This document shows positions 22,031-64,000 of a stretch of 64,000 bases of DNA, in pieces; the stretch's first letter is position 1; each line of letters opens with the position of its first letter. The notes beneath the pieces were generated by a model. That model was not told where the DNA came from. It did not search any database and saw only the letters and a list, made by a program, of their open reading frames with translations. Source of the DNA: Gammaproteobacteria bacterium (lineage in GTDB: Bacteria; Pseudomonadota; Gammaproteobacteria; SZUA-229); contig JBFHWF010000002.1 in assembly GCA_041589175.1 (NCBI GenBank), positions 9,843-73,842 of the forward strand, read 5' to 3'. The position numbers and the translations under genes are program-made.

Positions 22031-22993
22031 ATGGCAGGCGTATTAGACAGTGTTGATAGCCGCACCCAGCTGGCCGGTCACAACCGGCTGGAATTATTAC
22101 TCTTTCGACTGGAAGGCAAACAGCGTTATGGCATCAATGTATTCAAGGTGCAGGAAGTCATCCGTTGCCCCAAGCTAACGCATATGCCAAAAGCAGATCG
22201 TAAGGTTGTGGGTGTCGCGCATTTACGAAATCGAACGATTCCCGTGATGGACCTTGGGCTGGCGATTAGTAACCAGCCTATTAAGGACCGGGAGAACAGC
22301 TTTGTTATCGTCACCGAATATAATCGCTTCATTCAGGGTTTCCTGGTTGCCGCGGTAGACCGTATCACCAACATGAACTGGAAAGAAATCCTGCCGCCTC
22401 CCAAGGGAAGTGGTAGTTCGAGTTATCTGACTGCTGTGACCCATGTGGATAAAGAGATGGTGGAAATTATTGATGTTGAGCGGGTGTTTGCCGACATCAT
22501 GGGGCATTCGGAAGAAGTCTCTAGTAATATTCTGGATGAAGCAAGTGAAATGGATAGTGAAAAACCGATGCATGTGCTGGTGGTGGATGATTCATCCGTA
22601 GCGCGTAATCAGGTGAAGCGTGTGCTGGAGAAAGTTGGCATTGAATGTACCCTGGCCAATGATGGACAGGAGGGGCTGGAAGTTTTACAGAAATGGGCGG
22701 ATGAAGGAACACCGCTGAATGAAAAGATAGCGCTGGTTATATCCGATATCGAAATGCCTCGTATGGATGGCTATACCCTGACGACCAAGATTCGCAAGGA
22801 CCCCAGAATGGAGGGGCTATATGTTATGCTGCACACTTCTCTGAGTGGTGTGTTTAATAACAGTATGGTAGAAAAGGTCGGGGCTAATCACTTTATTCCA
22901 AAATTTAAACCGAACGAGCTGGCACATACGGTGATTAATATTGTGAATAACAAAGACCCTAAAGAGGGGCTTGATCAGGTTAAAGACGATTAG
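22031..22993 (+). CDS. cheV: CheV (CheW-like domain plus receiver)
   Basis: N-terminal CheW-like domain (LLLFRLEGKQRYGINVFKVQEV) and C-terminal REC (VLVVDDS...ISDIEMPRMDG). Confidence 0.9.
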   Translation: MAGVLDSVDSRTQLAGHNRLELLLFRLEGKQRYGINVFKVQEVIRCPKLTHMPKADRKVVGVAHLRNRTIPVMDLGLAISNQPIKDRENSFVIVTEYNRFIQGFLVAAVDRITNMNWKEILPPPKGSGSSSYLTAVTHVDKEMVEIIDVERVFADIMGHSEEVSSNILDEASEMDSEKPMHVLVVDDSSVARNQVKRVLEKVGIECTLANDGQEGLEVLQKWADEGTPLNEKIALVISDIEMPRMDGYTLTTKIRKDPRMEGLYVMLHTSLSGVFNNSMVEKVGANHFIPKFKPNELAHTVINIVNNKDPKEGLDQVKDD

Positions 22994-23063: not shown

Positions 23064-23888
23064 ATGAGCGTAAGTTTTACTCCTGAGGAATATAAAAGTT
23101 TTCAGGCATTCCTGGAGAAAGCCTGTGGCATCGTGCTAGGGGAGAATAAGCATTATCTTGTCTCCAGTCGGCTCAATCGCTTGATGCAGGAAAATAATAT
23201 TCCAACATTACAGGTATTGGTCGATACGCTAGAAAAGTCTTTGAGTAGCCAGCTTAAAACCCGTGTTATCGAGGCCATGACCACCAACGAAACCCTGTGG
23301 TTTCGTGATACCTATCCTTTCAAGGTGCTTAGCGAGACGATTTTCCAGGAGTATCGTGATGCACGAAAACCATCTGTAAGAATATGGTCCGCTGCCTGTT
23401 CCAGTGGGCAGGAACCTTATTCAATGAGCATGGTTGCTGAGGAGTTTGCCAGGGACAATCCTGGTTTCCGAGTTGAAATCGTAGCAACCGATATTTCCCA
23501 GGCGATTCTTAACGAGGCTAAACAGGCGCAGTACGATGGCCTGGCGCTGGCCCGTGGTTTATCCGAAGAGCGTAAGCGGCAATATTTTTCCCAGCTGGGT
23601 GATCAGTGGCAGGTGAATGCAAATATTCGGCAACGAGTGAGTTTTCGTGAAGTGAATCTGTTACAGAACTATGCCACCCTGGGGCGTTTTGATGTAATTT
23701 TCTGCCGCAATGTGCTGATCTATTTCTCTACCGAATCGAAGAAAGATATTCTCGATCGCATGGCAAAAATACTCAATCCTCGTGGTTTCCTTATGCTGGG
23801 TGCGTCTGAATCCATCGCTCAGTACTCTGACAAGTTTGAAATGGTTCGTGCCAGTAGCGGTGTGGTTTACCGTCTTAAAGGCTATTGA
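23064..23888 (+). CDS. cheR: Chemotaxis methyltransferase CheR
   Basis: ETLWFRD, RIWSAACSSGQEPYS and FCRNVLIYF motifs. Confidence 0.92.
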   Translation: MSVSFTPEEYKSFQAFLEKACGIVLGENKHYLVSSRLNRLMQENNIPTLQVLVDTLEKSLSSQLKTRVIEAMTTNETLWFRDTYPFKVLSETIFQEYRDARKPSVRIWSAACSSGQEPYSMSMVAEEFARDNPGFRVEIVATDISQAILNEAKQAQYDGLALARGLSEERKRQYFSQLGDQWQVNANIRQRVSFREVNLLQNYATLGRFDVIFCRNVLIYFSTESKKDILDRMAKILNPRGFLMLGASESIAQYSDKFEMVRASSGVVYRLKGY

Positions 23889-50981: not shown

Positions 50982-52346
50982 ATGAAATGGTTTACAACAC
51001 AGGTTGGAACAATGGATACACAACAGCTTTCAGTTCTTCAGGTGGCAAAAACTCCCTCCGCAGCATCAAGGTCGACAACCGGTGTGACATCGACGGGGCA
51101 GGGTGAGGCAGAGTCACAGCCACAAGTATTCAAAGACCATCTTGAGCAGCAGCTAGAGCATCAGCTAGAGCAGCAGGTCGAAGCACCTGTCGAGTCCGAA
51201 TATCTACAAAAAACTGTTGATAATCAACAAGATAAAACAATGCATGAATCACCCGCTTCGACACTTCTCATGAACAATGAGGATGCCCTGGTGATGACTG
51301 CAGAGCAGCAGGCAATCATGCTGGATAGCAGAATCAGCACGGCGCTGAGTAGTCAGCCTGATTCACCTGAGCCGGGCTTGCCTGAACTCGATAGTTCAGC
51401 AGAATTGGTGATTCCGGGGCTAGCGACAGACATGCCATCTCAGAACGCAGGCTTGCCGCTGGGTGGCAATGCATTGCCGCAGGATCACATACCTCAACTC
51501 AGTCAGTCACCCGCACAGATAGTTTCCAGAGGTTTGCCATTTAAAGCTGCTAGTGACACAACTGTGATGACAGGCTCGCAGCCGGTGATCACAGGTCAGG
51601 CCACTGGTATACAGCAGGCTGTCTTAGCACAGGCCAGTATTGTACAGGCGCAAAGTGAATCGACTGATGTGCCAGTAACACAGTATATAGCACCGGTGTT
51701 GAAACCAGTGGTAGCAGCACTTGAGGGCGGGCTGCGTCAGGCCGAGGGTAAACCTGCACTGGATGCCATTTTCAGTCAGCTGTCAGCGACACAGGTGCTG
51801 AATCAGGCCAGCCTGCAGCAGCGAGTACCAGAACTGAACCAGACAATGAGTCCACAACTTTCAGTATTTAATGCCACACCTGTGATGGATTCACCGCTGA
51901 TGGCCAATGCTCAGACAGGTTTAAGTATTCCTGCGTCACTTGGAACTACGCAATGGTCACAGCAGATGAGTGAGCAGGTAAGTATGATGCTAAGAAATGG
52001 TCAGCAGGTCGCAGAAATCAGATTAAACCCGGCACATCTTGGGCCGATGGAAATTCGCCTGACAGTGAATGATGATCAGGCGAGTGTGAATTTTATTGCC
52101 CAGCATGCACCAGTACGTGATGCAATTGATCAGGCATTACCCCGTCTCAGGGATATGCTTGAGCAGCAGGGGCTGAATCTTGCGGATGTAGATGTAGCGA
52201 CTCATTCTGATACACAGCAGCAACAGGCAGAGGAATATTCAGCACAGGGTTCTGATGACGGAGAAGTTGTAACAGATAAGCAGGGTGAAACTCAGGGAGA
52301 TGTGGTACAGCGAGTGATTGATAGTGGATTAAGTCTCTATGCCTGA
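50982..52346 (+). CDS. fliK: Flagellar hook-length control protein FliK
   Basis: Q/P/S-rich ruler region and C-terminal FliK domain (AEIRLNPAHLGPMEIRLTV...QQGLNLADVDV). The true start is probably ATG 51012, given the promoter position. Confidence 0.88.
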   Translation: MKWFTTQVGTMDTQQLSVLQVAKTPSAASRSTTGVTSTGQGEAESQPQVFKDHLEQQLEHQLEQQVEAPVESEYLQKTVDNQQDKTMHESPASTLLMNNEDALVMTAEQQAIMLDSRISTALSSQPDSPEPGLPELDSSAELVIPGLATDMPSQNAGLPLGGNALPQDHIPQLSQSPAQIVSRGLPFKAASDTTVMTGSQPVITGQATGIQQAVLAQASIVQAQSESTDVPVTQYIAPVLKPVVAALEGGLRQAEGKPALDAIFSQLSATQVLNQASLQQRVPELNQTMSPQLSVFNATPVMDSPLMANAQTGLSIPASLGTTQWSQQMSEQVSMMLRNGQQVAEIRLNPAHLGPMEIRLTVNDDQASVNFIAQHAPVRDAIDQALPRLRDMLEQQGLNLADVDVATHSDTQQQQAEEYSAQGSDDGEVVTDKQGETQGDVVQRVIDSGLSLYA

Positions 52347-54823
52347 CGATGCATACTGGCTTCCGTCAGTAAGCTTAATGTCAGGTGAAGCAGTTCAGCA
52401 GAGTCGACGGGCTTTTTCATAAACCCCTTAATATGTAACTGTTCAGCACCTTCAGCAGTTATGGCATTACTATGTCCAGTGCATAGAATGATGGGTAATT
52501 CGGGGCGTAGTTCCAGCATCTGTGAGGCGAGTAAATCGCCGGTCAACCCGGGCATAGTCTGGTCGGTTATTATCAGATCAAACTGGTCAGGGTCGCGTTT
52601 AAAGGTTTCCAGTGCTTCTATCGAATCACAGTATGCTGCCGTTTCAAAACCGGCGTTTCTAAATAGCTCGGCGATAAATGAGGCTACGCTATTTTCATCG
52701 TCAACAATCATGAGTCGCTTGTTGGCGATTATTGACATGTCAATCGGCAATGTCTCACGCGTTTTTTCTTCGTTAACACGTTCCAGGTTAAATAACAGCT
52801 GAATCTGTGTTCCCTGCTGAGTATACTGTTCATCGATTCTGGAGCTGGAAATAATTATATGGCCGTTACTGCTATGAACAATGTCATTGGCGATTCGTAA
52901 TCCGGAGTTATTGCTATCGGCTGACTCGCTTTCAAGTAAATCTGTAATACTCTGTTTGCTAATACCCGGTCCATTATCCTGTATGGTAAGCACAGCATAT
53001 GAATGATCCAGAAGTTTGCCGCAACAGGTGCAATGTTTACCCTGAATGTTCTGACAATCGAGGTTAATAGACAATGTTCCCTTGCCGTTCATGGCGTTGC
53101 GAGAATTAATCAGTAGATGCATTAGCAGTTGGTTAAACCGTGATGCATTAATAAATACAGCAGGTATATCTGGAGCTATCGATGTTGCAATTTCCATGGA
53201 TGATGGCAATGCCGAACGTAGCATTTTGAGTGTGTTTTTTAGCAGTGAGGGCAGCACAATCGCCCTCGAGGATGATTCCTCCTGTAAATTTATGTTCTGT
53301 ATCTGCTCAATAATATCCCGAGCTTTGATTCCAGATTCGCGTATATGACCCAGATAGCTGGCTAGTTTTGCATCTGTGTTGTTTAAGTGTTCAATAGCAA
53401 GGTCAGAGAATCCCAGTATGCTTGCCAGGATGTTATTGAAATCATGTGCGATGCCGCCAGCAAGCATGCCCAGGGCTTCCATTTTCTGTGCCTGGTGAAG
53501 CTGGTTTTCGAGTAATTTCTGCTCTTCCTGTTGCTGAAGCTGAACGGTTATGTCGTCACCTGCAAAGATGACAGATATTGGTCGCTTATCATCACATATA
53601 ACAGTGCTTTTCCAGCGTATCTGTCGGCACTGATTATCATAGGTGATGATTGGAAGTTGCTCACTGGTGTGTGATTCAGTGTCTGGCGTTAGCTGACAAG
53701 TCAGTAACTGGTGAAAGTGATCACGAAAAGTTTGCCTGACCTCCTGTGGTATGAAACTGTCAATAAAATTCATTCCAGCCAGGTCGTTCTGCGTGCAACC
53801 AAGAATATGTGAAGCATGCTGGTTGGCTAGAACGATGCGTTCATGATTGTCCAGTACGATAATGAGAACCTCAGCCACATCAATATATCGACGCGAAAGT
53901 TCACGCTCATATTTGAGAGAGGCTTCCATGTGTTTTCTATTTATCGCTTCAGCAAGAATATTCGATATTGATTGCAGAAAATTCAGTTCATCGAATTTAA
54001 GTTTGGTTTCGAGTGGGCTGAATAAAATAAAAATTCCAAAAGGGTAGTTCTTTTCACCAATCAGTAGGCTGGTGAAGGATTTGTAGCTGTCTTTTATTAG
54101 CTCGTCGGGGAACTCGAACCGATGTTCAGCTTTTATGGATTCGCAGGAAACTGGTGTGTCGCTACTCATAGTAAAACCTATGAGGTTGGATCTTGATGCC
54201 TGTATTACGGTTTTTGCAGCTTTTACCTGTGGCGTATTATATGCGGCTTTTACGAGAGCGGATTTACCATTAATTGCTAGTTCAAGAATGATACCGGAAG
54301 ACATTCCAAGAGACCCACAGACAACGGCGAGTGTCTGCTCAAGTAGATCTGTTACTGGTATATTGCTAAGAGACACCTGCCCCAGTATTGCAATAAGACC
54401 CTGTCGATGCGCTCTCTGTTTGAGCCCGTCGATAAGCTTTTTTCTAGGTCGTGAATCTACCAGTTGCCCAATGTGGAACTGTTTATCATCTATCTGTGCC
54501 GGCGTGAAGGTGGCATCTAGCCAGATTGTTTCACCATCGCTGGTGATGAATTGAAGCTCACCCTTCCAGGTTTGTCTCGAATTTAATGTGCTGGCAAGAA
54601 AATCGTAGTTATTATGCGTGCTTTCAACATGAGTAAAATCTTTGATTGGGCATCTGGTCAATGCCTCCTGAGTGGTGTTTAGAAGGCTGGCAAAGCGTTG
54701 ATTGCAGTAGTGTATATTAAGCTCATCATCAAGAATACAGATGACAGAGTAATTCAGTGTCTGCTCTATCAGGTGCGATTCTAACTGCTGTTCAAGTTGC
54801 ATATTACTCGATAGGGAGGCCAA
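52337..54823 (-). CDS. Soluble hybrid histidine kinase (PAS, GAF, PAS, HisKA, atypical HATPase, receiver)
   Basis: H-box GGIAHDFNNILASI, N-box LLINSRNAM, DNGPGI, and receiver LIITDQTMPGLTG...KKP. ATG 54802 is an alternative start, 1 nt after the upstream REC stop. Confidence 0.85.
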   Translation of the reverse strand: MASLSSNMQLEQQLESHLIEQTLNYSVICILDDELNIHYCNQRFASLLNTTQEALTRCPIKDFTHVESTHNNYDFLASTLNSRQTWKGELQFITSDGETIWLDATFTPAQIDDKQFHIGQLVDSRPRKKLIDGLKQRAHRQGLIAILGQVSLSNIPVTDLLEQTLAVVCGSLGMSSGIILELAINGKSALVKAAYNTPQVKAAKTVIQASRSNLIGFTMSSDTPVSCESIKAEHRFEFPDELIKDSYKSFTSLLIGEKNYPFGIFILFSPLETKLKFDELNFLQSISNILAEAINRKHMEASLKYERELSRRYIDVAEVLIIVLDNHERIVLANQHASHILGCTQNDLAGMNFIDSFIPQEVRQTFRDHFHQLLTCQLTPDTESHTSEQLPIITYDNQCRQIRWKSTVICDDKRPISVIFAGDDITVQLQQQEEQKLLENQLHQAQKMEALGMLAGGIAHDFNNILASILGFSDLAIEHLNNTDAKLASYLGHIRESGIKARDIIEQIQNINLQEESSSRAIVLPSLLKNTLKMLRSALPSSMEIATSIAPDIPAVFINASRFNQLLMHLLINSRNAMNGKGTLSINLDCQNIQGKHCTCCGKLLDHSYAVLTIQDNGPGISKQSITDLLESESADSNNSGLRIANDIVHSSNGHIIISSSRIDEQYTQQGTQIQLLFNLERVNEEKTRETLPIDMSIIANKRLMIVDDENSVASFIAELFRNAGFETAAYCDSIEALETFKRDPDQFDLIITDQTMPGLTGDLLASQMLELRPELPIILCTGHSNAITAEGAEQLHIKGFMKKPVDSAELLHLTLSLLTEASMHRQA

Positions 54824-55181
54824 GTATAGTGTTGACGCTTTCCCTGAGCTCTTTTACGGTAAATGGTTTTTTTAGTGTTGTCTCAGCACCTACCAGTTTG
54901 GCTATTGGAAGGTAATCGAAACGACCTGTGATGCCTCCACCCCCAGATATCGCCAGTATGCGCATGTCAGGATAGGCCTTGCTGAATTCCATAATCATGT
55001 CTATGCCATTTTTTTCTGGCATTACAAGGTCTGCTATTAGCAGGTCAATTTTATTGTCTTTACAGATGGTTTCAGCATCCGCAACATTTTCAGCAGTGTG
55101 AACCTGATGATGCTCAGATAGTGCCTCATCGATAAACTGAAGAATTGATGTGTCGTCATCGACGACAAGTATTGTGCTCAT
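54804..55181 (-). CDS. Single-domain response regulator (receiver only)
   Basis: VVDDD, LLIADLVMPEKNG, AISGGGG and KKPF motifs. Confidence 0.88.
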   Translation of the reverse strand: MSTILVVDDDTSILQFIDEALSEHHQVHTAENVADAETICKDNKIDLLIADLVMPEKNGIDMIMEFSKAYPDMRILAISGGGGITGRFDYLPIAKLVGAETTLKKPFTVKELRESVNTILGLPIE

Positions 55182-55214
55182 TGTATGGAACAGCCATATA
55201 TCGTTAATTCAATA

Positions 55215-56402
55215 TTAGAATAGCTCAATATCACCATTTGTCATCGATTGCTGAGATATTGGGTTCCGATTCATTCTAAGATCAAAATCTTGTATTTCAG
55301 AGAGCGTTGTCTGGAAAATCTCAACCAGGGCGTCGAGATTGAGGCTGCTATCAGTCTGATTATCAAGCGACTGGTTGATAGTTGCATCCATGCTGGAAAT
55401 CAGTAGTAACTTCTGAATGCGTGTGTCCATATGGCTGGACAACTGGGTAACCATGTCTTCAAACTGTAAAGATTGAATAGCGAGGCCAACATGTCGATTT
55501 AAAAGGTCTGATATCTTGGAAATTTCGGACAATTTGTTCGAAGTTTCTATGTTCCGGGCTTCGATCTCATGCATCATGTCATCCAGATGCGTTTTGTTAG
55601 AAATCGTCATATTCATATCACTTGATGCCATTCGACCAACCTGTGTGTTGGCGATTGATATCGTGTCCGCTGTACTGGTGAACTGTTCACGAATCTGGTC
55701 GCTAAAATTCTGGCTTCTCTGAGATAGTGATCTAACTTCATCGGCGACGACGGCGAAGCCACGACCCTGATCGCCTGCTCGGGCGGCTTCTATGGCAGCA
55801 TTCAGTGCCAGCAAATTAGTCTGGGCACTAATGGAGTCCATTTCATCCAGTAGTTTCAGAACTTTCTCGTAATCATTACGTACCTGATTTAATGAGTTCA
55901 CAAGCTCCATGCTCTGCTTGCTCATATCAGTAATGTTTTGCATGATGGTTTTCAGAGTGTCGGCAGCATCTACGGCAAGCCCCTGAATCGTCTTGTGATT
56001 ATCAGACTCATTAGATACATCATCGACTAGTGAAAATACCATATTTTTCTGTTGCATCGATTCACGTTCCAGTCCCTGGAAACTCGCAACAAGGCCCTTA
56101 ATAGCGGTATTCAATAATGACTGAATCTGTTCGTTCTCTGTTTTAACGATTTTGACTTCCTGTTTGCACACAGAGTGAGTTTCGGAAATCAGTCTTGCCA
56201 GTTGTTCACTATTGTCGATGGTGGAGGCGCTCTGCCCAGAATCTATCGTACTGCTGGATGTACTGCTTATGATGATGAGAGCTACGGCTGTTAGAAGAGC
56301 AATGCTTCCGTATGCAGTAATACCCGTTGGGAATACACTGTACAGTGCGATACAGATGATCGCTATGATTATAACGCTCAGGTGTTTCTTGTAATTTCTC
56401 AT
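55215..56402 (-). CDS. Membrane-anchored MCP with a TM hairpin and no periplasmic sensor domain
   Basis: Two adjacent TM helices and the MCP hairpin [32 protein letters not shown]. It also has an [10 protein letters not shown] motif and a C-terminus ending GDIELF. The TTG at 56429 is an alternative start. Confidence 0.85.
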
Positions 56403-56462
56403 ATTGATAATTAACGAATAAAGTATCAAGCAATAGCTTGTGGATATTTAATCATCAACAGG

Positions 56463-57545
56463 TTAATTAATGTCGTTACCTATCGATGGCCCATGAAACT
56501 CCGTGCATCCTATCTGTTTTGCAAACTCTAGTTCTTTTGGTGTGGAAATATCAGCACCAATTATTGTTATGTTACGGTTTTTATAAGCTTCCAGCATTAT
56601 TGATATGTTATTGCTGTTATTGAGCGAAATATATGTTAGTGGAATATCGATCTCAATCGCATCACATCGACTGTTTTTGATGATATTCAGTACATGTAGT
56701 GAAAAACTGAACCTTTCTATGTGCATCCTGGTATTAAGCTCTGATACTGCATTATACAAATGCTCATAGTCTTTTCTGTAAAGTTGTGACTCGCTGAATA
56801 CGCATTCAACCTGCGCCTCAGATATTTTCTCTGAACGCAGAGTATCTCGAAGCATAGATACGAACTGTACTGGATTTGCATTAAAAGGCTGAATATAGAT
56901 AGCCAGTCTGTCTGTTTTGTTATCGTTTTTGAACTGCTTGCAGGCACGTTCTATCAGAATTCTTGCATGACGCAGCTGCAGAGGTGTGTCCGGGCTGAGC
57001 AGACGTTTATTTTTAGCTTCGAGCTGATTAAACTGGACTAGTTGTGTTACCGGCTGCTCATAATCAATCGATAGTCGATAACGTATGCTGACTCTATACT
57101 CGTTGTTTTCAATATCAGTTGCCAGATTGGTCGCGTCCCGAATAATACTGGCAGGTGTATTATGATGTGCGCGTGATATACGGTGCTTTAGTACAGACCA
57201 GTTAATTGGTTTGGTAATGTAATCATCAGCACCTGCGTTGAAAGCTTCCTCAACCGAGTTATCATCGTCAAGGCTGGTGATAATGATGGTGGGTATATCA
57301 GCATAGCGCTCCTTAATTTTTCGGCATGCCTCAAAACCGTTGAGTTCTGGCATAACCGCATCCAGTAGCACCATGTCTATATGATTCTGCTCAAGTAATG
57401 TTAATACTTCCATGCCATTGGCAGCATCATGGGTGATGTACCTTTCTTTTTCCAGTATATGCTTCAGCAGGAATCGTACAGATGGGTCATCATCGGCGAT
57501 AATGATATGCGGTCTATCGTGCTGGGCTATGCTTTGTCCATTCAA
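56463..57545 (-). CDS. Response regulator: receiver plus degenerate EAL-like domain
   Basis: REC motifs IIADDD, LLDAVMPELNG and TKP. The C-terminal roughly 210 aa has an EAL-fold-like pattern but with substituted catalytic motifs. The TTG start is preceded by AGGA. Confidence 0.7.
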   Translation of the reverse strand: MNGQSIAQHDRPHIIIADDDPSVRFLLKHILEKERYITHDAANGMEVLTLLEQNHIDMVLLDAVMPELNGFEACRKIKERYADIPTIIITSLDDDNSVEEAFNAGADDYITKPINWSVLKHRISRAHHNTPASIIRDATNLATDIENNEYRVSIRYRLSIDYEQPVTQLVQFNQLEAKNKRLLSPDTPLQLRHARILIERACKQFKNDNKTDRLAIYIQPFNANPVQFVSMLRDTLRSEKISEAQVECVFSESQLYRKDYEHLYNAVSELNTRMHIERFSFSLHVLNIIKNSRCDAIEIDIPLTYISLNNSNNISIMLEAYKNRNITIIGADISTPKELEFAKQIGCTEFHGPSIGNDIN

Positions 57546-57965
57546 ACTTATGATTCCTGACGCAATGACTTAATGCGGTGGCCTACGGAAGAGGAGGGGA
57601 TACCGTGACAGACCCTGTTTAATTCGAGTCTAGTCGCTGACGGTGGCTTTTCAAGTTTGTCTGTGCAATTAGGCATGTTGTGAGGAATTCAAATAAAGTC
57701 AATAAATACAATAAGATAGAGTTATCGATTGGTTTTTTATTAGAACCTCATTAAAAAAAACAATCTTAATGAGGAAAAAATCCCGATGCCACCTGAATAC
57801 TCAGTTGAAGATATCAACAGTCACTAATAAGTCGATAAAAATCATACTAAAAGAGTGTCTGGATGAATGGTTAATAGCGGAATCTTGGTCTATACATATC
57901 CTAGACACAGCACTATTAGCTGGAATAGTCGGAAACAGAAATGTGAATTTAGGGGAATATCCATA

Positions 57966-58328
57966 ATGGCGAGTATATTGGCGGTTGATGACTCATCATC
58001 TATGCGGCAGATGGTGTCTTTTACCTTGAAAGGTGCCGGCTACCAGGTCACTGAGGCTGCTGATGGGCAGGAAGCACTGAATAAGGCGAAAGCACAACAG
58101 TTTGATCTCATCATAACTGACGTAAATATGCCGGTAATGGATGGTATTACATTTATACGTCATCTACGCGGTGAAGCGAATTATCGATTTACCCCCATGC
58201 TCATGCTAACAACTGAATCTGCTGCAGACAAAAAGGCAGAAGGTAAGGCTGCGGGTGCAACTGGGTGGATCGTAAAACCATTCAATCCCGATCAGTTACT
58301 GAATACCATTAAGAAGGTACTGCGCTAG
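57966..58328 (+). CDS. cheY: Chemotaxis response regulator CheY
   Basis: ILAVDDSSSMRQM, IITDVNMPVMDG, LTTES and WIVKPF motifs. The internal ATG at 57966 fits the domain boundary. Confidence 0.9.
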   Translation: MASILAVDDSSSMRQMVSFTLKGAGYQVTEAADGQEALNKAKAQQFDLIITDVNMPVMDGITFIRHLRGEANYRFTPMLMLTTESAADKKAEGKAAGATGWIVKPFNPDQLLNTIKKVLR

Positions 58329-58351
58329 TTTATCTGTAGGAGTCCACATAA

Positions 58352-60394
58352 ATGTCGATAGATCTGGCTCAGTTTCACGAGACATTTTTCGAAGAAAGTT
58401 TTGAAGGGCTGGATGTTATGGAGTCAGGCCTGCTCGAGCTCGAGCAGGGCGAAGTTGACCTGGAAAACATCAATACAATCTTCAGATCAGCTCACTCAAT
58501 CAAAGGCGGCAGCGGCACGTTCGGTTTTACCGCAGTAGCAGATTTCACACATGATATGGAAACCCTGTTAGACCAGATGCGCAATGGCGATCGCCAGGTA
58601 ACCGCTGATATCGTAAATGTACTTCTGGGTTGTGTTGACACGCTTAGAAGTATGCTCACTGCGATCAAGGATAAGGAAGATGTTGACGTCACCGCTGTCG
58701 CGGAAATGTCAGCAAAACTGCAGGCCATTCTTAATGGTGAAGTGGTACATGACGGTGCACCTGGAGAACAGGTCAACGATACGGTTGTTACGAGCAAGGA
58801 ACAATCTACGGGTGATGGCTGGAATATCTGTTTTACGCCTTTTCAAGACATTATGAAGACTGGCAATGATACTGTCAGGTTGATAAGAGAGTTAAGAGAA
58901 CTGGCTCAGGAATCAGAAGTGGAGGCCATTACTGATAATTTGCCAGCGCTTGAAGAAATCGATCCTGAAGGGAGTTATATCAGCTGGAATATACGCCTGT
59001 ATGGCCAGGATATTAATGAAGAAGAAATACGTGAAGTCTTTGCGTGGGTCGATGATGAATGTGAACTTGAGATAAAGCCTCTGGTTGTTGGTGCTGCATA
59101 TACAGGCCCGGAGCGACGCGATGACTCACGCAGGCAGGAAGATGCACCTGACAGACGTTCTACAGACAGAAGAAGTAAGGCCTCAGAATCATCATCGATT
59201 CGCGTTAATATCAGTAAGGTTGATGAACTGATCAATATGGTCGGTGAACTGGTTATAACACAGTCAATGTTGAGCCAGTTTGGTGATGATGAGTTCAATG
59301 AGCAGCATCTGGAGCGGCTGAAAGATGGATTATCTCAATTAGAGAGCCACACCCGCGAACTTCAGGAAAGCGTCATGCGTATTCGGATGATGCCTATCAG
59401 CTTTGCATTTCAGAGATTTCCACGACTTGTGCATGACCTGAGTACACAGTTTGGTAAGAAAATCGAACTGGTTATGTCGGGTGAAAATACCGAGCTAGAC
59501 AAAACTGTACTCGAAAAAATTGGTGATCCACTTGTGCATCTTGTTAGAAACTCACTGGATCATGGTATTGAATCACCAGAATCACGGATAAATGCAGGCA
59601 AATCAGAAACCGGTGTTATCGAGCTTAAGGCTTATCATCAGGGTGGCAATATTGTCATAGAGATAAGGGATGATGGTGCTGGCCTCAATAAAGAAAAGAT
59701 ACTGACTAAAGCGCGGGATAATAACCTGATAGGTAATGATGAAAGACTATCAGATGAACAGATATACGATCTGATATTCAGGCCAGGTTTCTCCACAGCC
59801 GATGTGATTAGTGATGTATCGGGTCGTGGTGTAGGAATGGATGTTGTCAGGAGAAATATAAGAGAACTTGGGGGTGCAGTTGATGTCGCTTCAAGTCCAG
59901 GTGAAGGATCAGTTTTCACAATTCGTCTGCCGCTGACACTTGCAATACTCGATGGGCAGCTGGTGGGCATAGGTGATGAAACCTATATCCTGCCTGTTAT
60001 CTCTATCGTTGAATCCCTGCAGGTGAGAGAAGAAAACATTAATGCTGTTGCTGGTAATGCTGAAGTTTACAGGCTGAGAGAAGAATACATTCCTATTGTC
60101 AGATTGTATCAGATATTTGATATTCAGCCGGCCTCAGAAAAATTATCGGATGGCTTGCTGGTAGTCGTTGAGGCAGAGGGTAAGAAAATAGCTATCTTTG
60201 TAGATGACCTATTAGGGCAGCAGCAGGTTGTAATAAAGAGCCTGGAAACAAATTTTAGAAAAGTAGAAGGCGTATCCGGTGCAACCATACTGGGAAATGG
60301 CACGGTGTCCCTGATAATTGATATTGCAGGGCTCATAGAATTGTACCAGAACGATATTGCCGGTCTTGCACCCTCGGTAAAAGGTGCGGCTTAG
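58352..60394 (+). CDS. cheA: Chemotaxis histidine kinase CheA
   Basis: P1 motif RSAHSIKGGSGTFGF, P3/P4 motifs (DPLVHLVRNSLDHGIE, DDGAGL, GRGVGMD) and a P5 CheW-like domain. Confidence 0.95.
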   Translation: MSIDLAQFHETFFEESFEGLDVMESGLLELEQGEVDLENINTIFRSAHSIKGGSGTFGFTAVADFTHDMETLLDQMRNGDRQVTADIVNVLLGCVDTLRSMLTAIKDKEDVDVTAVAEMSAKLQAILNGEVVHDGAPGEQVNDTVVTSKEQSTGDGWNICFTPFQDIMKTGNDTVRLIRELRELAQESEVEAITDNLPALEEIDPEGSYISWNIRLYGQDINEEEIREVFAWVDDECELEIKPLVVGAAYTGPERRDDSRRQEDAPDRRSTDRRSKASESSSIRVNISKVDELINMVGELVITQSMLSQFGDDEFNEQHLERLKDGLSQLESHTRELQESVMRIRMMPISFAFQRFPRLVHDLSTQFGKKIELVMSGENTELDKTVLEKIGDPLVHLVRNSLDHGIESPESRINAGKSETGVIELKAYHQGGNIVIEIRDDGAGLNKEKILTKARDNNLIGNDERLSDEQIYDLIFRPGFSTADVISDVSGRGVGMDVVRRNIRELGGAVDVASSPGEGSVFTIRLPLTLAILDGQLVGIGDETYILPVISIVESLQVREENINAVAGNAEVYRLREEYIPIVRLYQIFDIQPASEKLSDGLLVVVEAEGKKIAIFVDDLLGQQQVVIKSLETNFRKVEGVSGATILGNGTVSLIIDIAGLIELYQNDIAGLAPSVKGAA

Positions 60395-60412
60395 TGAATG
60401 TGGAGTTAATAA

Positions 60413-60925
60413 ATGTCGGAAATAGCTGAAGAAATAGAGCACCAGGAAATAGCGAATGAGTATAAAGAGCTATTAACATTTTTTCTGGCTGGTGAGGAGT
60501 ATGGCGTCGATATTCTGCGCGTACAGGAAATAAAGGGCTGGGATACCGTTACAAATATACCCAATACACCTGAATATATTCGAGGTGTTATCAATATACG
60601 TGGCAGCATAGTGCCAATTATTGATATGCGACTGAGGTTCAATCTGGAGAAAAGAGACTACGATGCAACAACTGTCGTGATCGTGCTCAATGTCATGCGT
60701 GGTAATAAAGAGAGTCGAACCATGGGTATTGTCGTTGATGCGGTTTCTGATGTTTATAACATCCCGCTGGATGATGTTAAAGCATCACCAGATTTTGGTA
60801 CTGCTGTAGATACAGAGTTCGTTACTGGTCTGGCAACAGTTAATGAAAAGATGATTATCGTGCTTGATATTGACCATATGCTAAATGCAGCCGAGCTGGA
60901 AGTGATTGATACGATATCTGAATAA
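60413..60925 (+). CDS. cheW: Chemotaxis coupling protein CheW
   Basis: LLTFFLAGEEYGVDILRVQEIKG...GVINIRGSIVPIIDMR. Confidence 0.93.
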   Translation: MSEIAEEIEHQEIANEYKELLTFFLAGEEYGVDILRVQEIKGWDTVTNIPNTPEYIRGVINIRGSIVPIIDMRLRFNLEKRDYDATTVVIVLNVMRGNKESRTMGIVVDAVSDVYNIPLDDVKASPDFGTAVDTEFVTGLATVNEKMIIVLDIDHMLNAAELEVIDTISE

Positions 60926-60941
60926 TCGAACATATGATTAA

Positions 60942-61691
60942 ATGACAAGAAAGATCGCTGTAATCAATCAGAAAGGTGGCGTCGGTAAAACTACGACTAC
61001 TGCAAATCTCGGATATTTGCTTGCGGAAAATGGATCGACTGTAACATTAATTGATCTCGATCCTCAGAGTAGCTTGACTGTAAGTCTGGGTGTTGACTGG
61101 AGAGAGCATAAAGGTATTGAAGACGTGCTTTTGCACGGTGAATGTCTTGAAGATGTAGTCGTTAAAAAAAATTCACGGCTAAATCTGGTTGCTTCTGGTA
61201 ATCACCTGGGGCAAGCAGAGCATATAGATCAGGAGTCATCAGCTATTGCAAAAAAATTGAGGGATGTAATTGCAGGTATAGAAGATGACTATGTTCTTAT
61301 AGATTGTCCGCCATCATCTGGGTTTCTCATAGTGAGTGCACTATATGCAGTTGATGAGGTGCTGATACCGATTGCTGCAGATTATCTGACATTACATGGT
61401 CTGTCGCATTTGATAGGAACGATACAGGGGTTCGAGCAGCGCATTGGGCATAGCATTGCTAAGCGATTCGTAGTGACTCGCTATCATCCTAGAAGAAGGC
61501 TGGCGAATGATGTCAGGGAAAAGTTGCATGTATATTTTCCAGGTGAGGTGCTAGAGACCTGTATCAGGGAGTCTAGCTCGCTTGCTGAGGCGCCAGGATT
61601 TGGTAAAACGATTTATGAATATCAGCGTAATTCTAATGGCTGTGAAGACTATAGAAAACTGGCCGCTGAGTTTGCAATGATTGAGATGTAA
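60942..61691 (+). CDS. ParA/Soj-family deviant Walker-A ATPase encoded inside the che operon
   Basis: IAVINQKGGVGKTTTTANL (signature Lys plus P-loop) and Walker B-like YVLIDCPP. Confidence 0.88.
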   Translation: MTRKIAVINQKGGVGKTTTTANLGYLLAENGSTVTLIDLDPQSSLTVSLGVDWREHKGIEDVLLHGECLEDVVVKKNSRLNLVASGNHLGQAEHIDQESSAIAKKLRDVIAGIEDDYVLIDCPPSSGFLIVSALYAVDEVLIPIAADYLTLHGLSHLIGTIQGFEQRIGHSIAKRFVVTRYHPRRRLANDVREKLHVYFPGEVLETCIRESSSLAEAPGFGKTIYEYQRNSNGCEDYRKLAAEFAMIEM

Positions 61692-61693
61692 GT

Positions 61694-62557
61694 ATGCCAA
61701 GAAAGAAAAAAACAATGATAGGTGTTGATCCTCTGGCCTGGCTTAATGAGGAAAGTGAATCACAAACTGTTGTGACTGAGTCAGGTAGTAATACCGATGA
61801 AGAAAATATAATGTCACAGTCTGATCGTGATCTAAAATCAACTATGTTGGGTTATGAGTTCGATGAGTCAGAACTCATCAAGGGTTTTGAAAGAATTGTT
61901 CCATGTATGCAGGAAGTCGAGGATGCTGTCTCAACATATGTAACTGGTTTGAGAAGTGACTGGGAAGATTCTGAAATTAAAGAGATACAAGCGCATTCCA
62001 TGTCGGTAATTCGATTCATTGTTGATCATCATGCAGACGAAGATATTTTGCTGTCACATATAGCGGCTAATAAAGGCTTGTTTAGTAAAGTCGTTAGTGC
62101 GGATGAATACAGCACGGATAATATGTTAGCGGCAGTCAAGAAGGTTGTTGGGAGAGGATGGACGAAAGCGATTAATGCTGCCTGGTCGGGTATCGTCAAT
62201 GTGGTTATTGAGCATGTTGAAGATGATGAGCATAAGGAGAAATCGATAGATGTGCCTGAAGTTGTTGATGTGAAAACGGATGTACCTGGTAACCGTATAG
62301 AATTGCATGAGATACAGGATATTAGTCGATCTCAAGCGCTAAAGAATGAGTTGCTGAGTCTCGTAAATGAGAATGATGAAATCGAAATTGATGGTAGCAG
62401 GGTGGAGCGAATCGATGGTACTGCGCTACAGCTCCTTTGTGCATTATACAGATATGCGCATAGTAATAATATCTCAATACACTGGGCAGGGTGTTCTGAA
62501 GCGCTCATTGAATCAGCTAATGCTGTAGGTTTAAAACAGCTGACTGGTATTGATTAA
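61694..62557 (+). CDS. STAS-domain protein with a basic N-terminal tail and a helical central region
   Basis: The C-terminal roughly 100 aa fits the STAS pattern (EIDGSRVERIDGTALQLLCALYRYA...ISIHWAGCSEAL). The N-terminus is MPRKKKTMIGVDPLAWL. It starts 2 nt after the parA stop. Confidence 0.65.
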   Translation: MPRKKKTMIGVDPLAWLNEESESQTVVTESGSNTDEENIMSQSDRDLKSTMLGYEFDESELIKGFERIVPCMQEVEDAVSTYVTGLRSDWEDSEIKEIQAHSMSVIRFIVDHHADEDILLSHIAANKGLFSKVVSADEYSTDNMLAAVKKVVGRGWTKAINAAWSGIVNVVIEHVEDDEHKEKSIDVPEVVDVKTDVPGNRIELHEIQDISRSQALKNELLSLVNENDEIEIDGSRVERIDGTALQLLCALYRYAHSNNISIHWAGCSEALIESANAVGLKQLTGID

Positions 62558-62573
62558 GTTTTGGAGTATGAAG

Positions 62574-64000
62574 ATGAGTGGAATAGTGGCAGAAGACTTA
62601 AAGCCCCATGACGTTGATGTTTTAGAACGAAGTTTTGATCAGGTTGCGCCCCATGCACAGGACCTTGTTAGCAGGTTTTATGAAAGGCTTTTCGAAAAAT
62701 ATCCTGATGTAAGGCCAATGTTTGAGGGTACAGATATCAATGCTCAGAAACAGAAATTGCTTGCCTCTTTGAAGCTTGTAATTGGGAATCTGAGAAAGCC
62801 TGATGTGCTTGAGGAGTCTCTGAAAGAGTTAGGTCGACGCCATCAGGGATATGGTGCAGTAGAAGCGCATTATCAGGCTGTGGCAGAAACATTGATAGGC
62901 GTAATGAAAGAAATTGTGGGTAGTCAATGGAATTCTGAAATAGAACAGGCCTGGACAAAGGCATTGTCGAAAATAGCTGAGATTATGCTTGGTGCTTACA
63001 GTAGCAATGAGCAGGATGAAACTGGAGAGAATGAAATGAATGACATGGTTATTAATGAAGAAAGCATGCAAGAGCTTGCTAGATTGCGCTCTGCTGTAAG
63101 TGGTGCGATGCAGGCGATGATGATGATAGATAGAGATTTTAATATTACCTATGTCAATCAGGCGACCACGGCTCTTCTGAAAAAACATGAACATGTTATG
63201 CGTCAGGAATACCCCGGGTTTGAGGCTGATAATATGTTAGGCAAGAATATAGATATATTTCATTCAAACCCAGCACATCAAAGACAGTTGTTGAGTAATC
63301 CTTCGAATCTCCCATATTCTACAGTGATTCATGTTGCGCACCTGTCTTTCAAGCTCAACGTTACGGCGATGATCGATGACGAGGGTAATTATATAGGTAA
63401 TACACTTGAGTGGGCTGATGTAACGGATGAGCTGGAAAAAGCAAGCCAGGCAGCTCGATTACAGGGAGCAATCGATGCATCAATGCAGGCGATCATAATG
63501 ATTGACAGGGATTTTGTTGTTACTTACGCCAATCAGTCGAGTATAGATTTACTGTCGAAATATCAGATGCAATTAAGTGCAGTGTATCCAGGATTTAGTC
63601 CTGCTAAATTGATTGGTAGCTGTATCGATATGTTTCATAAAAATCCACAGCACCAGAGAACTATGTTGGCAGATCCTTCTAATCTACCCTATCAGACCGA
63701 TATCGAGATCGGCGACCTGAAGTTTTCCTTGAATGTTACAGCTATCATGGATGCTCAGGACAGATATGTTGGTAATACGCTCGAATGGTCTGATGTTACT
63801 GAAGTCAGGCAAAAGGAGATTGAGGTAGCCAGATTGCAGTCTGCCGTGGATGGCGCTCAGGCAAATCTTATGATCTGTGATACGGATATGTTCATCACCT
63901 ATGCAAATCCTGCTGTGATTGAAATGATGGCGGCAAGAGCAGATAAACTAAGGAAGATATTTCCTGGCTTCGATGCACGAAACCTTGTCGGCCAGAATAT
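62574..64000 (+). CDS. Soluble globin plus tandem-PAS sensor protein, 3' partial (probable chemoreceptor; output domain lies outside the window)
   Basis: This ORF is absent from the ORF track because no stop occurs before the window end. I translated it by hand. GGAG lies 7 nt before ATG 62574. It encodes a globin (FYERLFEKYPDVRPMF, LGRRHQGYGAVEAHY) and at least 3 PAS-like modules. Confidence 0.8.
   Translation, partial: MSGIVAEDLKPHDVDVLERSFDQVAPHAQDLVSRFYERLFEKYPDVRPMFEGTDINAQKQKLLASLKLVIGNLRKPDVLEESLKELGRRHQGYGAVEAHYQAVAETLIGVMKEIVGSQWNSEIEQAWTKALSKIAEIMLGAYSSNEQDETGENEMNDMVINEESMQELARLRSAVSGAMQAMMMIDRDFNITYVNQATTALLKKHEHVMRQEYPGFEADNMLGKNIDIFHSNPAHQRQLLSNPSNLPYSTVIHVAHLSFKLNVTAMIDDEGNYIGNTLEWADVTDELEKASQAARLQGAIDASMQAIIMIDRDFVVTYANQSSIDLLSKYQMQLSAVYPGFSPAKLIGSCIDMFHKNPQHQRTMLADPSNLPYQTDIEIGDLKFSLNVTAIMDAQDRYVGNTLEWSDVTEVRQKEIEVARLQSAVDGAQANLMICDTDMFITYANPAVIEMMAARADKLRKIFPGFDARNLVGQN

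Follow-up and report, generated by a model that had tools for sequence, protein, structure and literature searches.

Chemosensory clusters of class F7, stage 1, represented by cluster III of Vibrio cholerae and found also in M. alcaliphilum, have a defined gene order (Ortega et al. 2020, PMC7184735), and the Che2 cluster of P. aeruginosa is a related system of stage 2. In canonical F7 systems, the arrays lie at the pole and are associated with the membrane (PMC7184735, PMC7534058), and the attachment of F7/Aer2 arrays has been stated to be unclear (PMC7534058). Here we analyzed a 64,000-nucleotide (nt) stretch of gammaproteobacterial DNA from contig JBFHWF010000002.1 (hereafter the window), in which positions 57966-64000 of the + strand hold the 5' half of an operon encoding CheY, CheA, CheW, a ParA ATPase, a modular STAS-domain protein (hereafter the adaptor) and a globin-bearing Aer2-like receptor. 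The operon represents a real and conserved feature: chemosensory array positioning by ParA proteins is known, and the adaptor class found here is new.

ParA-like genes in chemotaxis (che) operons are, as such, common knowledge, and ParA homologues have been reported in the che operons of 37% of 206 species (PMC2829493). Two such systems are described in some detail. PpfA, encoded in cheOp3 of Rhodobacter sphaeroides, binds the nucleoid and is bound by the receptor TlpT (PMC10924463), and the adaptor ParP links the ParA-like ATPase ParC to its array (PMC7534058). More generally, partner proteins of ParA/MinD ATPases contact the ATPase through a positively charged, disordered N-terminus (PMC10241942).

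An F7 operon with a globin-Aer2 receptor

Relatives of the locus (L numbers below) were gathered via homologues of the STAS protein and of ParA, a GTDB genome scan and a metagenome scan. Their gene order is cheY-cheA-cheW-parA-adaptor-globinAer2-cheR-cheD-cheB-mcpA-STAS-RR/SpoIIE/HATPase_c_2 (PP2C), in which mcpA encodes a methyl-accepting chemotaxis protein (MCP) of ~400 amino acids (aa) with a transmembrane (TM) hairpin and the 3' STAS protein has ~100 aa. The downstream part, cheR-cheD-cheB-mcpA-STAS-phosphatase, was seen in the orthologous loci L004, L006, L007, L008, L012 and L015 and in many loci of the metagenome census described below. Replaced genes excepted, this is the stage 1 order (PMC7184735) and that of the V. 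cholerae locus, L017. The window itself shows cheY-cheA-cheW and then an Aer2-like receptor gene, as in F7 stage 1, and its proteins are related to those of V. cholerae cluster III (identity of 62% for CheY, 45% for CheA and 44% for CheW) and of L004 (89% for CheY and 73% for CheA). Judged by synteny and by similarity to V. cholerae cluster III, on which the class assignment rests, window positions 57966-64000 are thus the 5' half of an F7 stage 1 Aer2 operon of the V. cholerae cluster III kind.

Two genes of the canonical cluster were not found in the window. Tblastn searches with 5' STAS queries matched only the C-terminal domain of the adaptor, and V. cholerae CheW2 matched only the single cheW; neither a stand-alone 5' STAS gene nor a second cheW is therefore present. 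The region upstream of cheY, where the canonical 5' STAS gene would be, is occupied by fliK or by a minus-strand block of genes, and the two missing genes are replaced by parA and the modular adaptor. The likeness to F7 stage 1 lies in gene order, the His and Trp of the PAS-haem domains, the EWEEF tail and HAMP/MCP region of the orthologous receptors and the 44-62% identity of the Che proteins, whereas the locus differs in having parA and the adaptor instead of the two missing genes, in the N-terminal globin of the Vitreoscilla haemoglobin (VHb) type and the extra PAS repeats of the receptor, and in the position of the cluster after fliK.

According to the calls of open reading frames (ORFs), all six genes are co-directional on the + strand, with successive intergenic gaps of 23, 18, 16, 2 and 10-16 nt, and no convincing terminator was found within the operon. 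The cheY frame is nested in a longer ORF that begins at 57867. Searches of Pfam and NCBIfam confirmed the domain assignments of all six genes (Table 1), and the six same-strand genes with gaps of 2-23 nt listed in a preliminary description of this DNA are confirmed.

The receptor gene runs past the window end. Its product is 55-64% identical to the L004 receptor, with a PAS region 53% identical to V. cholerae Aer2, and aa 148-475 match the NCBIfam model Aer2_vibrio (2.3e-126; 423 bits against a cut-off of 1200, for a partial protein only). The N-terminal globin scores 64 bits against PF00042 and 22 bits against Protoglobin PF11563 (cut-off 25), and its best matches in the PDB are 3wfw (3e-22), 3s1i (4e-17; M. 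infernorum) and VHb, 1vhb (1e-14). By these comparisons it is of the VHb/flavohaemoglobin (M/F) type and not of the protoglobin type; the receptor and adaptor globins share the Tyr-B10/Gln-E7/His-F8 pocket with M/F-family globins such as Vitreoscilla Hb and the M. infernorum proteins HGbI and HGbRL, the latter a globin-Roadblock/LC7 protein. HemAT, in which an N-terminal globin is coupled to an MCP, is a functional analogue, but it uses the protoglobin-like S family (PF11563), whereas the globin here precedes several PAS-haem domains. An MCP of Corallococcus with PAS and Bac_globin (truncated globin) domains, noted in silico (PMC6194562), differs in both globin family and cluster.

The first PAS repeat aligns to the V. 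cholerae Aer2 PAS domain 6ceq (6e-27) and to the P. aeruginosa Aer2 structures 3vol and 4hi4, and in alignment with these three both repeats 1 and 2 carry the haem-ligand motif FH(S/K)NPxHQR and a conserved downstream Trp. The two marks of Aer2, a PAS domain with a haem-ligand His (FHxNPxHQR) and an O2-stabilising Trp, are thus present. With one VHb-type globin and at least two to three PAS-haem domains, such a soluble multi-haem receptor would sense O2 or other haem ligands, and the locus documents receptors that stack a VHb-type globin on two to four PAS-haem domains.

No TM segment was detected in the 475-aa receptor fragment, the top 19-residue Kyte-Doolittle mean being 1.09. Orthologues such as those of L008 (953 aa) and L007 (1068 aa) have three to four PAS repeats ahead of HAMP-MCP, and the full-length orthologous receptors (799-1068 aa) carry HAMP_2, MCPsignal and a C-terminal EWEEF as in V. 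cholerae Aer2, to which ~360-390 of their HAMP/MCP residues align with 0-4 gap positions. By homology with these orthologues, the window receptor very probably ends in an MCP domain, and it is predicted to continue with a di-HAMP, the MCP signalling domain and the EWEEF tail.

Taken together, the gene order, the Che identities and the Aer2 PAS motifs support what the preliminary description had proposed, namely a second, Che2-like chemosensory system with a soluble haem receptor. Its comparison with P. aeruginosa Che2 was right in kind, and its statement that the first 475 aa of the receptor lack a TM segment is borne out by the Kyte-Doolittle scan. Placing the system outside the flagellar cluster was wrong as to position, since the operon follows fliK, and does so directly in many relatives. 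That description had also named three outcomes contrary to its proposal, a non-MCP output, a parA/STAS pair not conserved beside che genes and a Soj with a ParB partner, and none of the three was encountered: all complete orthologues end in an MCP signalling domain and EWEEF, a gene-neighbourhood check found the parA/STAS pair kept inside che clusters in >70 loci, and a ParB-like gene was absent from the loci examined.

The ParA-adaptor pair and the exchange of its modules

An alignment of 18 adaptor homologues (A1) revealed a common layout of N-terminal peptide, charged linker of variable length, globin, second linker and STAS_2 domain. The peptide is nearly invariant, with the consensus M-A-[RK]-x-K-K-[ST]-M-I-G-[FV]-D-P-L-A-W-L, which reads MPRKKKTMIGVDPLAWL in the window. 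Each locus has a single copy of the motif G-x-DPL[AE]W[LM], invariably at an N-terminus and right after parA, and both the motif and parA are absent from the V. cholerae locus L017. The parA and adaptor genes, which would be translationally coupled, are separated by 2 nt in the window and overlap by 1-4 nt in relatives. Moreover, a census by metagenome scan, using a degenerate DNA pattern that covers only the peptide (MIGxDPLAWL), yielded 60 loci, in 59 of which the peptide is N-terminal; parA ends just upstream of the peptide gene in 56 of the 56 loci having upstream DNA, a count that overstates independence, as the loci come mostly from few metagenome projects and are phylogenetically related. 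An AlphaFold2 (AF2) model predicts adaptor residues 1-47 to be disordered, which matches the N-terminus of ParA/MinD partner proteins. The peptide is therefore a candidate ParA handle, as would be expected of such a partner. The dedicated ParA/adaptor pair suggested in the preliminary description is strengthened by this peptide and by its fusion to receptors (see below), and a role of the pair in positioning would follow by comparison with known systems.

The window ParA has the deviant Walker A motif KGGxxK[ST] of the ParA/MinD family (KGGVGKT) and belongs to the Soj-like fold family, its best PDB match being Soj of T. thermophilus (1wcv; 134 bits, 6.8e-38). It is 44-68% identical to the ParAs encoded at the same position in eight other loci. 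Among themselves, the F7-linked ParAs are 44-89% identical, and all have a conserved TR[YF]H[PS]RRRL segment (TRYHPRRRL in the window); its Arg cluster aligns with the Soj region around the DNA-binding Arg. Bit scores are 203-383 within this group, 134 to Soj and 78 to the single ParC representative used for comparison, which was identified by its F6 context in L078, a Haliea metagenome-assembled genome (MAG); on these scores, the F7-linked ParAs form a group of their own. No C-terminal membrane-targeting helix is evident in the ParA sequence. ParC was excluded by 29-35% identity and 78 bits to the L078 protein, by a partner without a CheW-like domain and by the F7 context, and BcsQ by an NCBIfam score below cut-off and the absence of a bcs context. 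A chromosomal or plasmid ParABS system does not apply either: the gene downstream of parA encodes the peptide adaptor, and not ParB, in all loci examined.

Behind the peptide, the linker is acidic in the window and Lys-rich in many other adaptors. Long Lys/Ala-rich linkers with AKKKVxAKKK repeats, which recall histone-H1-like DNA-binding tails, were observed in L012, L013, L014 and L016 and in census loci such as L022, L042, L052 and L068; a direct contact with the nucleoid could occur through them in some lineages.

The globins of adaptor and receptor are paralogues (37-42% identical, E ~1e-25), and the best solved relatives of adaptor globins are 3wfw (HGbRL), 3s1i/3ubc and VHb. The haem pocket TyrB10/PheCD1/GlnE7/HisF8 is intact in 39 of 43 globin-bearing adaptors. 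The window adaptor reads S/W/I/K at B10/CD1/E7/F8 where the haem-competent form has Y/F/Q/H, and Pfam Globin gave no match to it at E<0.01. Foldseek returned only weak haemoglobin matches for this domain (rank 42). As judged from its sequence, the domain is a pseudo-globin which, because the haem ligands are lost, could only be structural. At least three further lineages have independently lost the pocket, and degenerate globins also occur in several of the closest representatives.

The AF2 model of the adaptor (mean predicted confidence, pLDDT, of 66) is helical at 58-176, disordered at 178-198 and alpha/beta at 200-287. Its STAS domain superposes on RsbV, SpoIIAA and MlaB in Foldseek with TM scores of 0.6-0.75 and a root-mean-square deviation of about 2 A, and contains VERIDG[TS]ALQLLCAL in A1. 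The preliminary description had called this product a STAS-domain protein: STAS_2 was confirmed, at aa 203-280 only, but it is no plain STAS protein, as it also has the peptide and the degenerate globin. The window adaptor is 31% identical to that of L004, compared with 69-89% for ParA, CheW, CheA and CheY; such fast adaptor evolution is typical of ParA partner proteins and would fit that role.

Two types of STAS domain could be distinguished. In a BLAST matrix, the adaptor STAS domains group (36-62 bits) with the 5' STAS proteins that stand alone in L014, in L016 and in V. cholerae, where the gene (L017 5121-5420) lies upstream of cheY, whereas no pairing of the adaptor/5' type with an RsbV-like 3' STAS protein scores above 30 bits and most pairings yield no hit at all. 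The 3' STAS proteins of relatives carry a DSSA phospho-serine motif; the corresponding residues of the adaptor/5' type are DGTA (window adaptor), DAAA or DAAG (stand-alone 5' STAS). Compared with SpoIIAA/RsbV, the STAS fold is thus present and the phosphorylatable Ser of a DSSG-type motif is absent.

The modules are recombined among loci. Among 53 classified census adaptors, 40 have the form peptide-globin-STAS and 13 the form peptide-STAS without globin; five of these 13 (L018, L019, L030, L039 and L060) belong to loci with non-globin MCPs. No 5'-type STAS gene lies upstream of cheY in loci having a peptide-STAS adaptor. The globin-Aer2 receptors of L014 and L016 themselves carry the peptide and a Lys-rich linker as an N-terminal fusion, and both loci also possess a stand-alone 5' STAS gene. 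In L015, parA and the adaptor gene follow the receptor gene. Such a pattern of fusion and fission would be expected if the peptide is the ParA handle, the array the cargo and the 5'-type STAS an array-associated domain. The recombination of three adaptor modules (ParA-tag peptide, globin and 5'-type STAS) into peptide-STAS, peptide-globin-STAS and peptide-on-receptor forms suggests that the 5' STAS protein and the Aer2 array are physically linked, a prediction that is directly testable in V. cholerae. A strict ParA-globin link was rejected, given the five loci that combine parA and peptide-STAS with non-globin MCPs and a Haliea globin-Aer2 without the module.

Two of these loci deserve a separate description. 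In L016 (8076-11391), the receptor appears as two ORFs, a 'globin' ORF of 311 aa and a PAS-MCP ORF of 796 aa, apparently owing to a frameshift or an assembly error within its first PAS domain; without this break, it consists of peptide, Lys-rich linker, globin, PAS and MCP. In the Haliea sp. MAG (L078, GCA_046484605.1, 7083-18472), a globin-Aer2 of 823 aa with an EWEEF tail belongs to a REC-cheW-receptor-cheR-cheD-cheB cluster that has neither cheA nor parA nor an adaptor gene beside it, and an F6-type cheA-motA-motB-parC-parP-cheW cluster immediately adjoins this cluster.

Proposed positioning of the Aer2 array and alternative explanations

We consider it likely, though by no means certain, that a dedicated ParA/adaptor system positions the Aer2 array. 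ATP-bound ParA dimers would bind a matrix, most likely the nucleoid, as PpfA does (PMC10924463). The basic N-terminal peptide of the adaptor would then bind ParA and stimulate its ATPase, and the C-terminal 5'-type STAS domain would dock on the Aer2 array; in most relatives, the haem-competent adaptor globin, paralogous to that of the receptor, may also contribute to docking. The cytoplasmic array would thereby be positioned, and partitioned at division, in the manner of PpfA/TlpT or McdA/McdB.

With PpfA/TlpT, compared here by description, the locus shares an orphan ParA in a che operon without ParB and a cytoplasmic receptor, and the receptors of L014 and L016 resemble TlpT further in bearing the ParA-linked peptide on their own N-terminus. 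In the window, by contrast, the peptide is on a separate adaptor, the cargo-side domain is a STAS domain, and the chemosensory class and receptor type differ. The name slp, which the preliminary description had given to a STAS-like gene of cheOp3, stands for Soj-like protein, an earlier name of ppfA, and no STAS-like slp gene was found in the literature searched on cheOp3. The present pair resembles McdA/McdB and further 'luggage-tag' systems of ParA/MinD ATPases, in which a fast-evolving partner has a basic, disordered N-terminal peptide for the ATPase and another part that binds the cargo (PMC10241942), but here the cargo would be a chemosensory array and not a carboxysome, and the partner architecture is different.

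Several points weigh against positioning of this kind. Binding of the peptide to ParA and of the STAS domain to the array are both proposed by comparison with other systems. The nucleoid is not a given as the matrix, because canonical F7 arrays are membrane-associated and polar. The parts of the adaptor may not all serve one function, as the linker is acidic in the window and Lys-rich in other adaptors and the globin is dispensable or degenerate. The completion of the F7 operon beyond the window (receptor output and cheR/D/B) is predicted from orthologues that are 55-75% identical. Furthermore, a globin-Aer2 receptor without a ParA module exists (L078), and the relatedness of the census loci lessens the weight of their uniform parA adjacency.

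The polar location of canonical F7 arrays also bears on a different explanation, in which ParA and adaptor anchor the array at the pole or membrane via a landmark protein, as ParC/ParP does via HubP/FimV. Those arrays are polar and membrane-associated although Aer2 lacks a TM segment, the cluster adjoins polar-flagellum genes, and an mcpA-like membrane receptor is part of the cluster in relatives. The ParC/ParP modules of Vibrio and Pseudomonas F6 clusters are also similar in form, a ParA-like ATPase gene followed by an adaptor gene in a che cluster. Nevertheless, the window ParA is far nearer to the nucleoid-binding Soj (134 bits) than to F6 ParC, the L078 ParC being only 29-35% identical, at 78 bits, to the F7-linked ParAs. 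ParP binds the array through a CheW-like AIF domain, which the adaptor lacks, having STAS with or without globin in its place, and the motCD-parC-parP-cheW context is replaced here by an F7 context. The Lys-rich, histone-like linkers of many adaptors and receptors suggest proximity to DNA. On balance, polar anchoring appears unlikely.

Two further explanations fit the data poorly. First, the adaptor could be an O2/NO-responsive signal protein of the anti-sigma-antagonist, partner-switching kind that feeds the 3' RR-PP2C/HATPase_c_2 protein, with ParA as an accessory regulator. Its STAS fold does match RsbV/SpoIIAA, relatives encode a downstream pair of STAS and RR-SpoIIE-HATPase_c_2 proteins, the haem pocket is kept in most adaptor globins, and the F7 system Che1 of Shewanella is linked to RpoS regulation (PMC9855816); CrsR/CrsA offers a comparison. 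Yet the adaptor STAS is of the 5' type, at most 30 bits from the RsbV-like 3' STAS and without DSSG/DSSA, while the globin is absent in 13 of the 53 classified adaptors and degenerate in others, including that of the window. Such a role would also leave unexplained the invariant peptide, the strict adjacency to parA and the transfer of the peptide to the receptor, and we regard it as improbable. Second, it is hardly conceivable that the ParA is unrelated to chemosensing, as a partition ATPase, a BcsQ-like protein or an FlhG/FleN-like regulator of flagellar number: its top NCBIfam scores are to the BcsQ and ParA partition models (both below cut-off), it is Soj-like in the PDB search and flagellar genes are nearby, but parA is kept between cheW and the receptor gene or between the receptor gene and cheR in >70 loci, none of which has ParB, bcs or flhF beside it, and its gaps to both flanking genes are 2-16 nt.

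Positioning of the Aer2 array by the ParA/adaptor pair allows an extension that we put forward with considerable reserve. In F7 stage 1 clusters, V. cholerae cluster III among them, the 5' STAS protein might be a physical component or docking factor of the Aer2 array; in the present loci it would have been made a 'luggage tag' for ParA by fusion to the peptide and joined to a haem globin, so that tethering of the array to the nucleoid could respond to O2/NO. If true, this would represent ligand-regulated positioning of a signalling array, whose assembly, position or inheritance would respond to O2/NO.

The adaptor family is rare. It comprises 19 clusters at 90% identity in an index of 5.8 billion proteins and 19 clusters at 50% identity (E<=1e-10) among 1.84 billion representatives, and was found in five of 185,579 GTDB species, all of them uncultured Gammaproteobacteria, one being a Thiotrichaceae. 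No mention of ParA, of a peptide-(globin)-STAS adaptor or of globin-Aer2 in F7 clusters was found in the text and supplements of Ortega et al. 2020, in Aer2 papers and reviews or by keyword searches of the literature. The locus thus provides a concrete handle on what places or partitions Aer2/F7 arrays, a point that reviews leave unexplained along with the function of the system, and a useful starting point for understanding the 5' STAS protein of F7 systems, which is itself unexplained. Moreover, it would add a new class of partner proteins to the ParA/MinD 'luggage tag' repertoire, and the short, highly conserved tag could serve in engineered positioning.

Genomic setting and further observations

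The operon is appended to a polar-flagellum regulon (19708-52346) that includes flgA, cheV, cheR, flgD/E/K, fliD, fliC (flagellin), fleQ, fleS/fleR and fliF-K, and lies 5.6 kb downstream of fliK. The cheV-cheR pair in this regulon is of the F6 style and lies apart from the six-gene operon. In many relatives cheY comes directly after fliK, and this conserved adjacency raises the question of co-regulation with motility. All features are listed in Table 1.

Table 1. Coordinates of the operon genes, their domains and neighbouring genes in the window
Feature	Position	Strand	Description
cheY	57966-58328	+	120 aa; first operon gene; Response_reg 5.5e-29 (Pfam)
cheA	58352-60394	+	680 aa; Hpt, H-kinase_dim, HATPase_c and CheW-like domains; PRK10547 5e-190
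cheW	60413-60925	+	170 aa; CheW 2e-35 (Pfam)
parA	60942-61691	+	249 aa; deviant Walker A KGGVGKT; AAA_31 6e-40, CbiA, ParA
Adaptor (STAS protein)	61694-62557	+	287 aa; peptide, acidic linker, degenerate globin, 5'-type STAS; from alignment A1, Pfam STAS_2, AF2 model, Foldseek
N-terminal basic peptide of adaptor	61694-61747	+	MPRKKKTMIGVDPLAWLN; nearly invariant in A1; candidate ParA-binding 'luggage tag'
Degenerate globin-like helical domain of adaptor	61865-62221	+	approx. aa 58-176; 7-residue deletion in B/C-CD region
STAS domain of adaptor	62291-62554	+	approx. aa 200-287; '5' STAS' type, VERIDGTALQLLCAL; STAS_2 9.5e-13; no DSSG phospho-serine motif
Globin-Aer2 receptor	62574-64000 (alternative ATG 62568)	+	N-terminal 475 aa; runs past window end
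Receptor globin	62598-62996	+	approx. aa 9-141; TyrB10, PheCD1, GlnE7, HisF8 intact; Pfam Globin PF00042 2.2e-17 (aa 34-137)
PAS-haem repeat 1	63069-63431	+	approx. aa 166-286; DIFHSNPAHQR with haem-ligand His, LEW Trp
PAS-haem repeat 2	63444-63803	+	approx. aa 291-410; DMFHKNPQHQR; Pfam PAS_8/PAS_4; second BLAST segment to V. cholerae Aer2
PAS repeat 3, start	63816-63998	+	PAS_8 aa 419-469; window ends before haem-His motif
cheV	22031-22993		in flagellar regulon
cheR	23064-23888		in flagellar regulon
Hybrid histidine kinase	within 52337-57545	-	828 aa; 2 PAS, HisKA, HATPase_c, REC
REC protein	within 52337-57545	-	125 aa
mcpA-like MCP	55215-56429	-	404 aa; N-terminal TM hairpin; C-terminus DIELF
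REC-EAL protein	within 52337-57545	-	360 aa

Between fliK and cheY, a 5.2-kb block of four genes lies on the - strand (52337-57545). A minus-strand mcpA-like MCP gene was found between fliK and cheY also in L007, L008, L012, L041, L050, L053, L072, L074 and L076, accompanied by a REC gene in several of these loci. Possibly, the block is accessory to the F7 cluster.

L013 (8791-8955), L014 (10208-10378) and L015 (8840-8980) each contain a small ORF (46-56 aa) beside cheW, parA or the receptor gene, and these ORFs have the C-terminal motif ...(F/M)xxxAW(N/V)G in common. The window, in which only 16 nt separate cheW from parA, has no such ORF. In addition, proteins of 169-193 aa with no Pfam match are encoded beside cheR/cheB in L015 (12869-13450) and L078 (13208-13717). 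With the C-terminus of the 404-aa MCP of the window (DIELF), they share an LQFEDM/FQFYDR motif and a C-terminal [IV]ELF, possibly a tail that serves in tethering as the xWxxF pentapeptides do.

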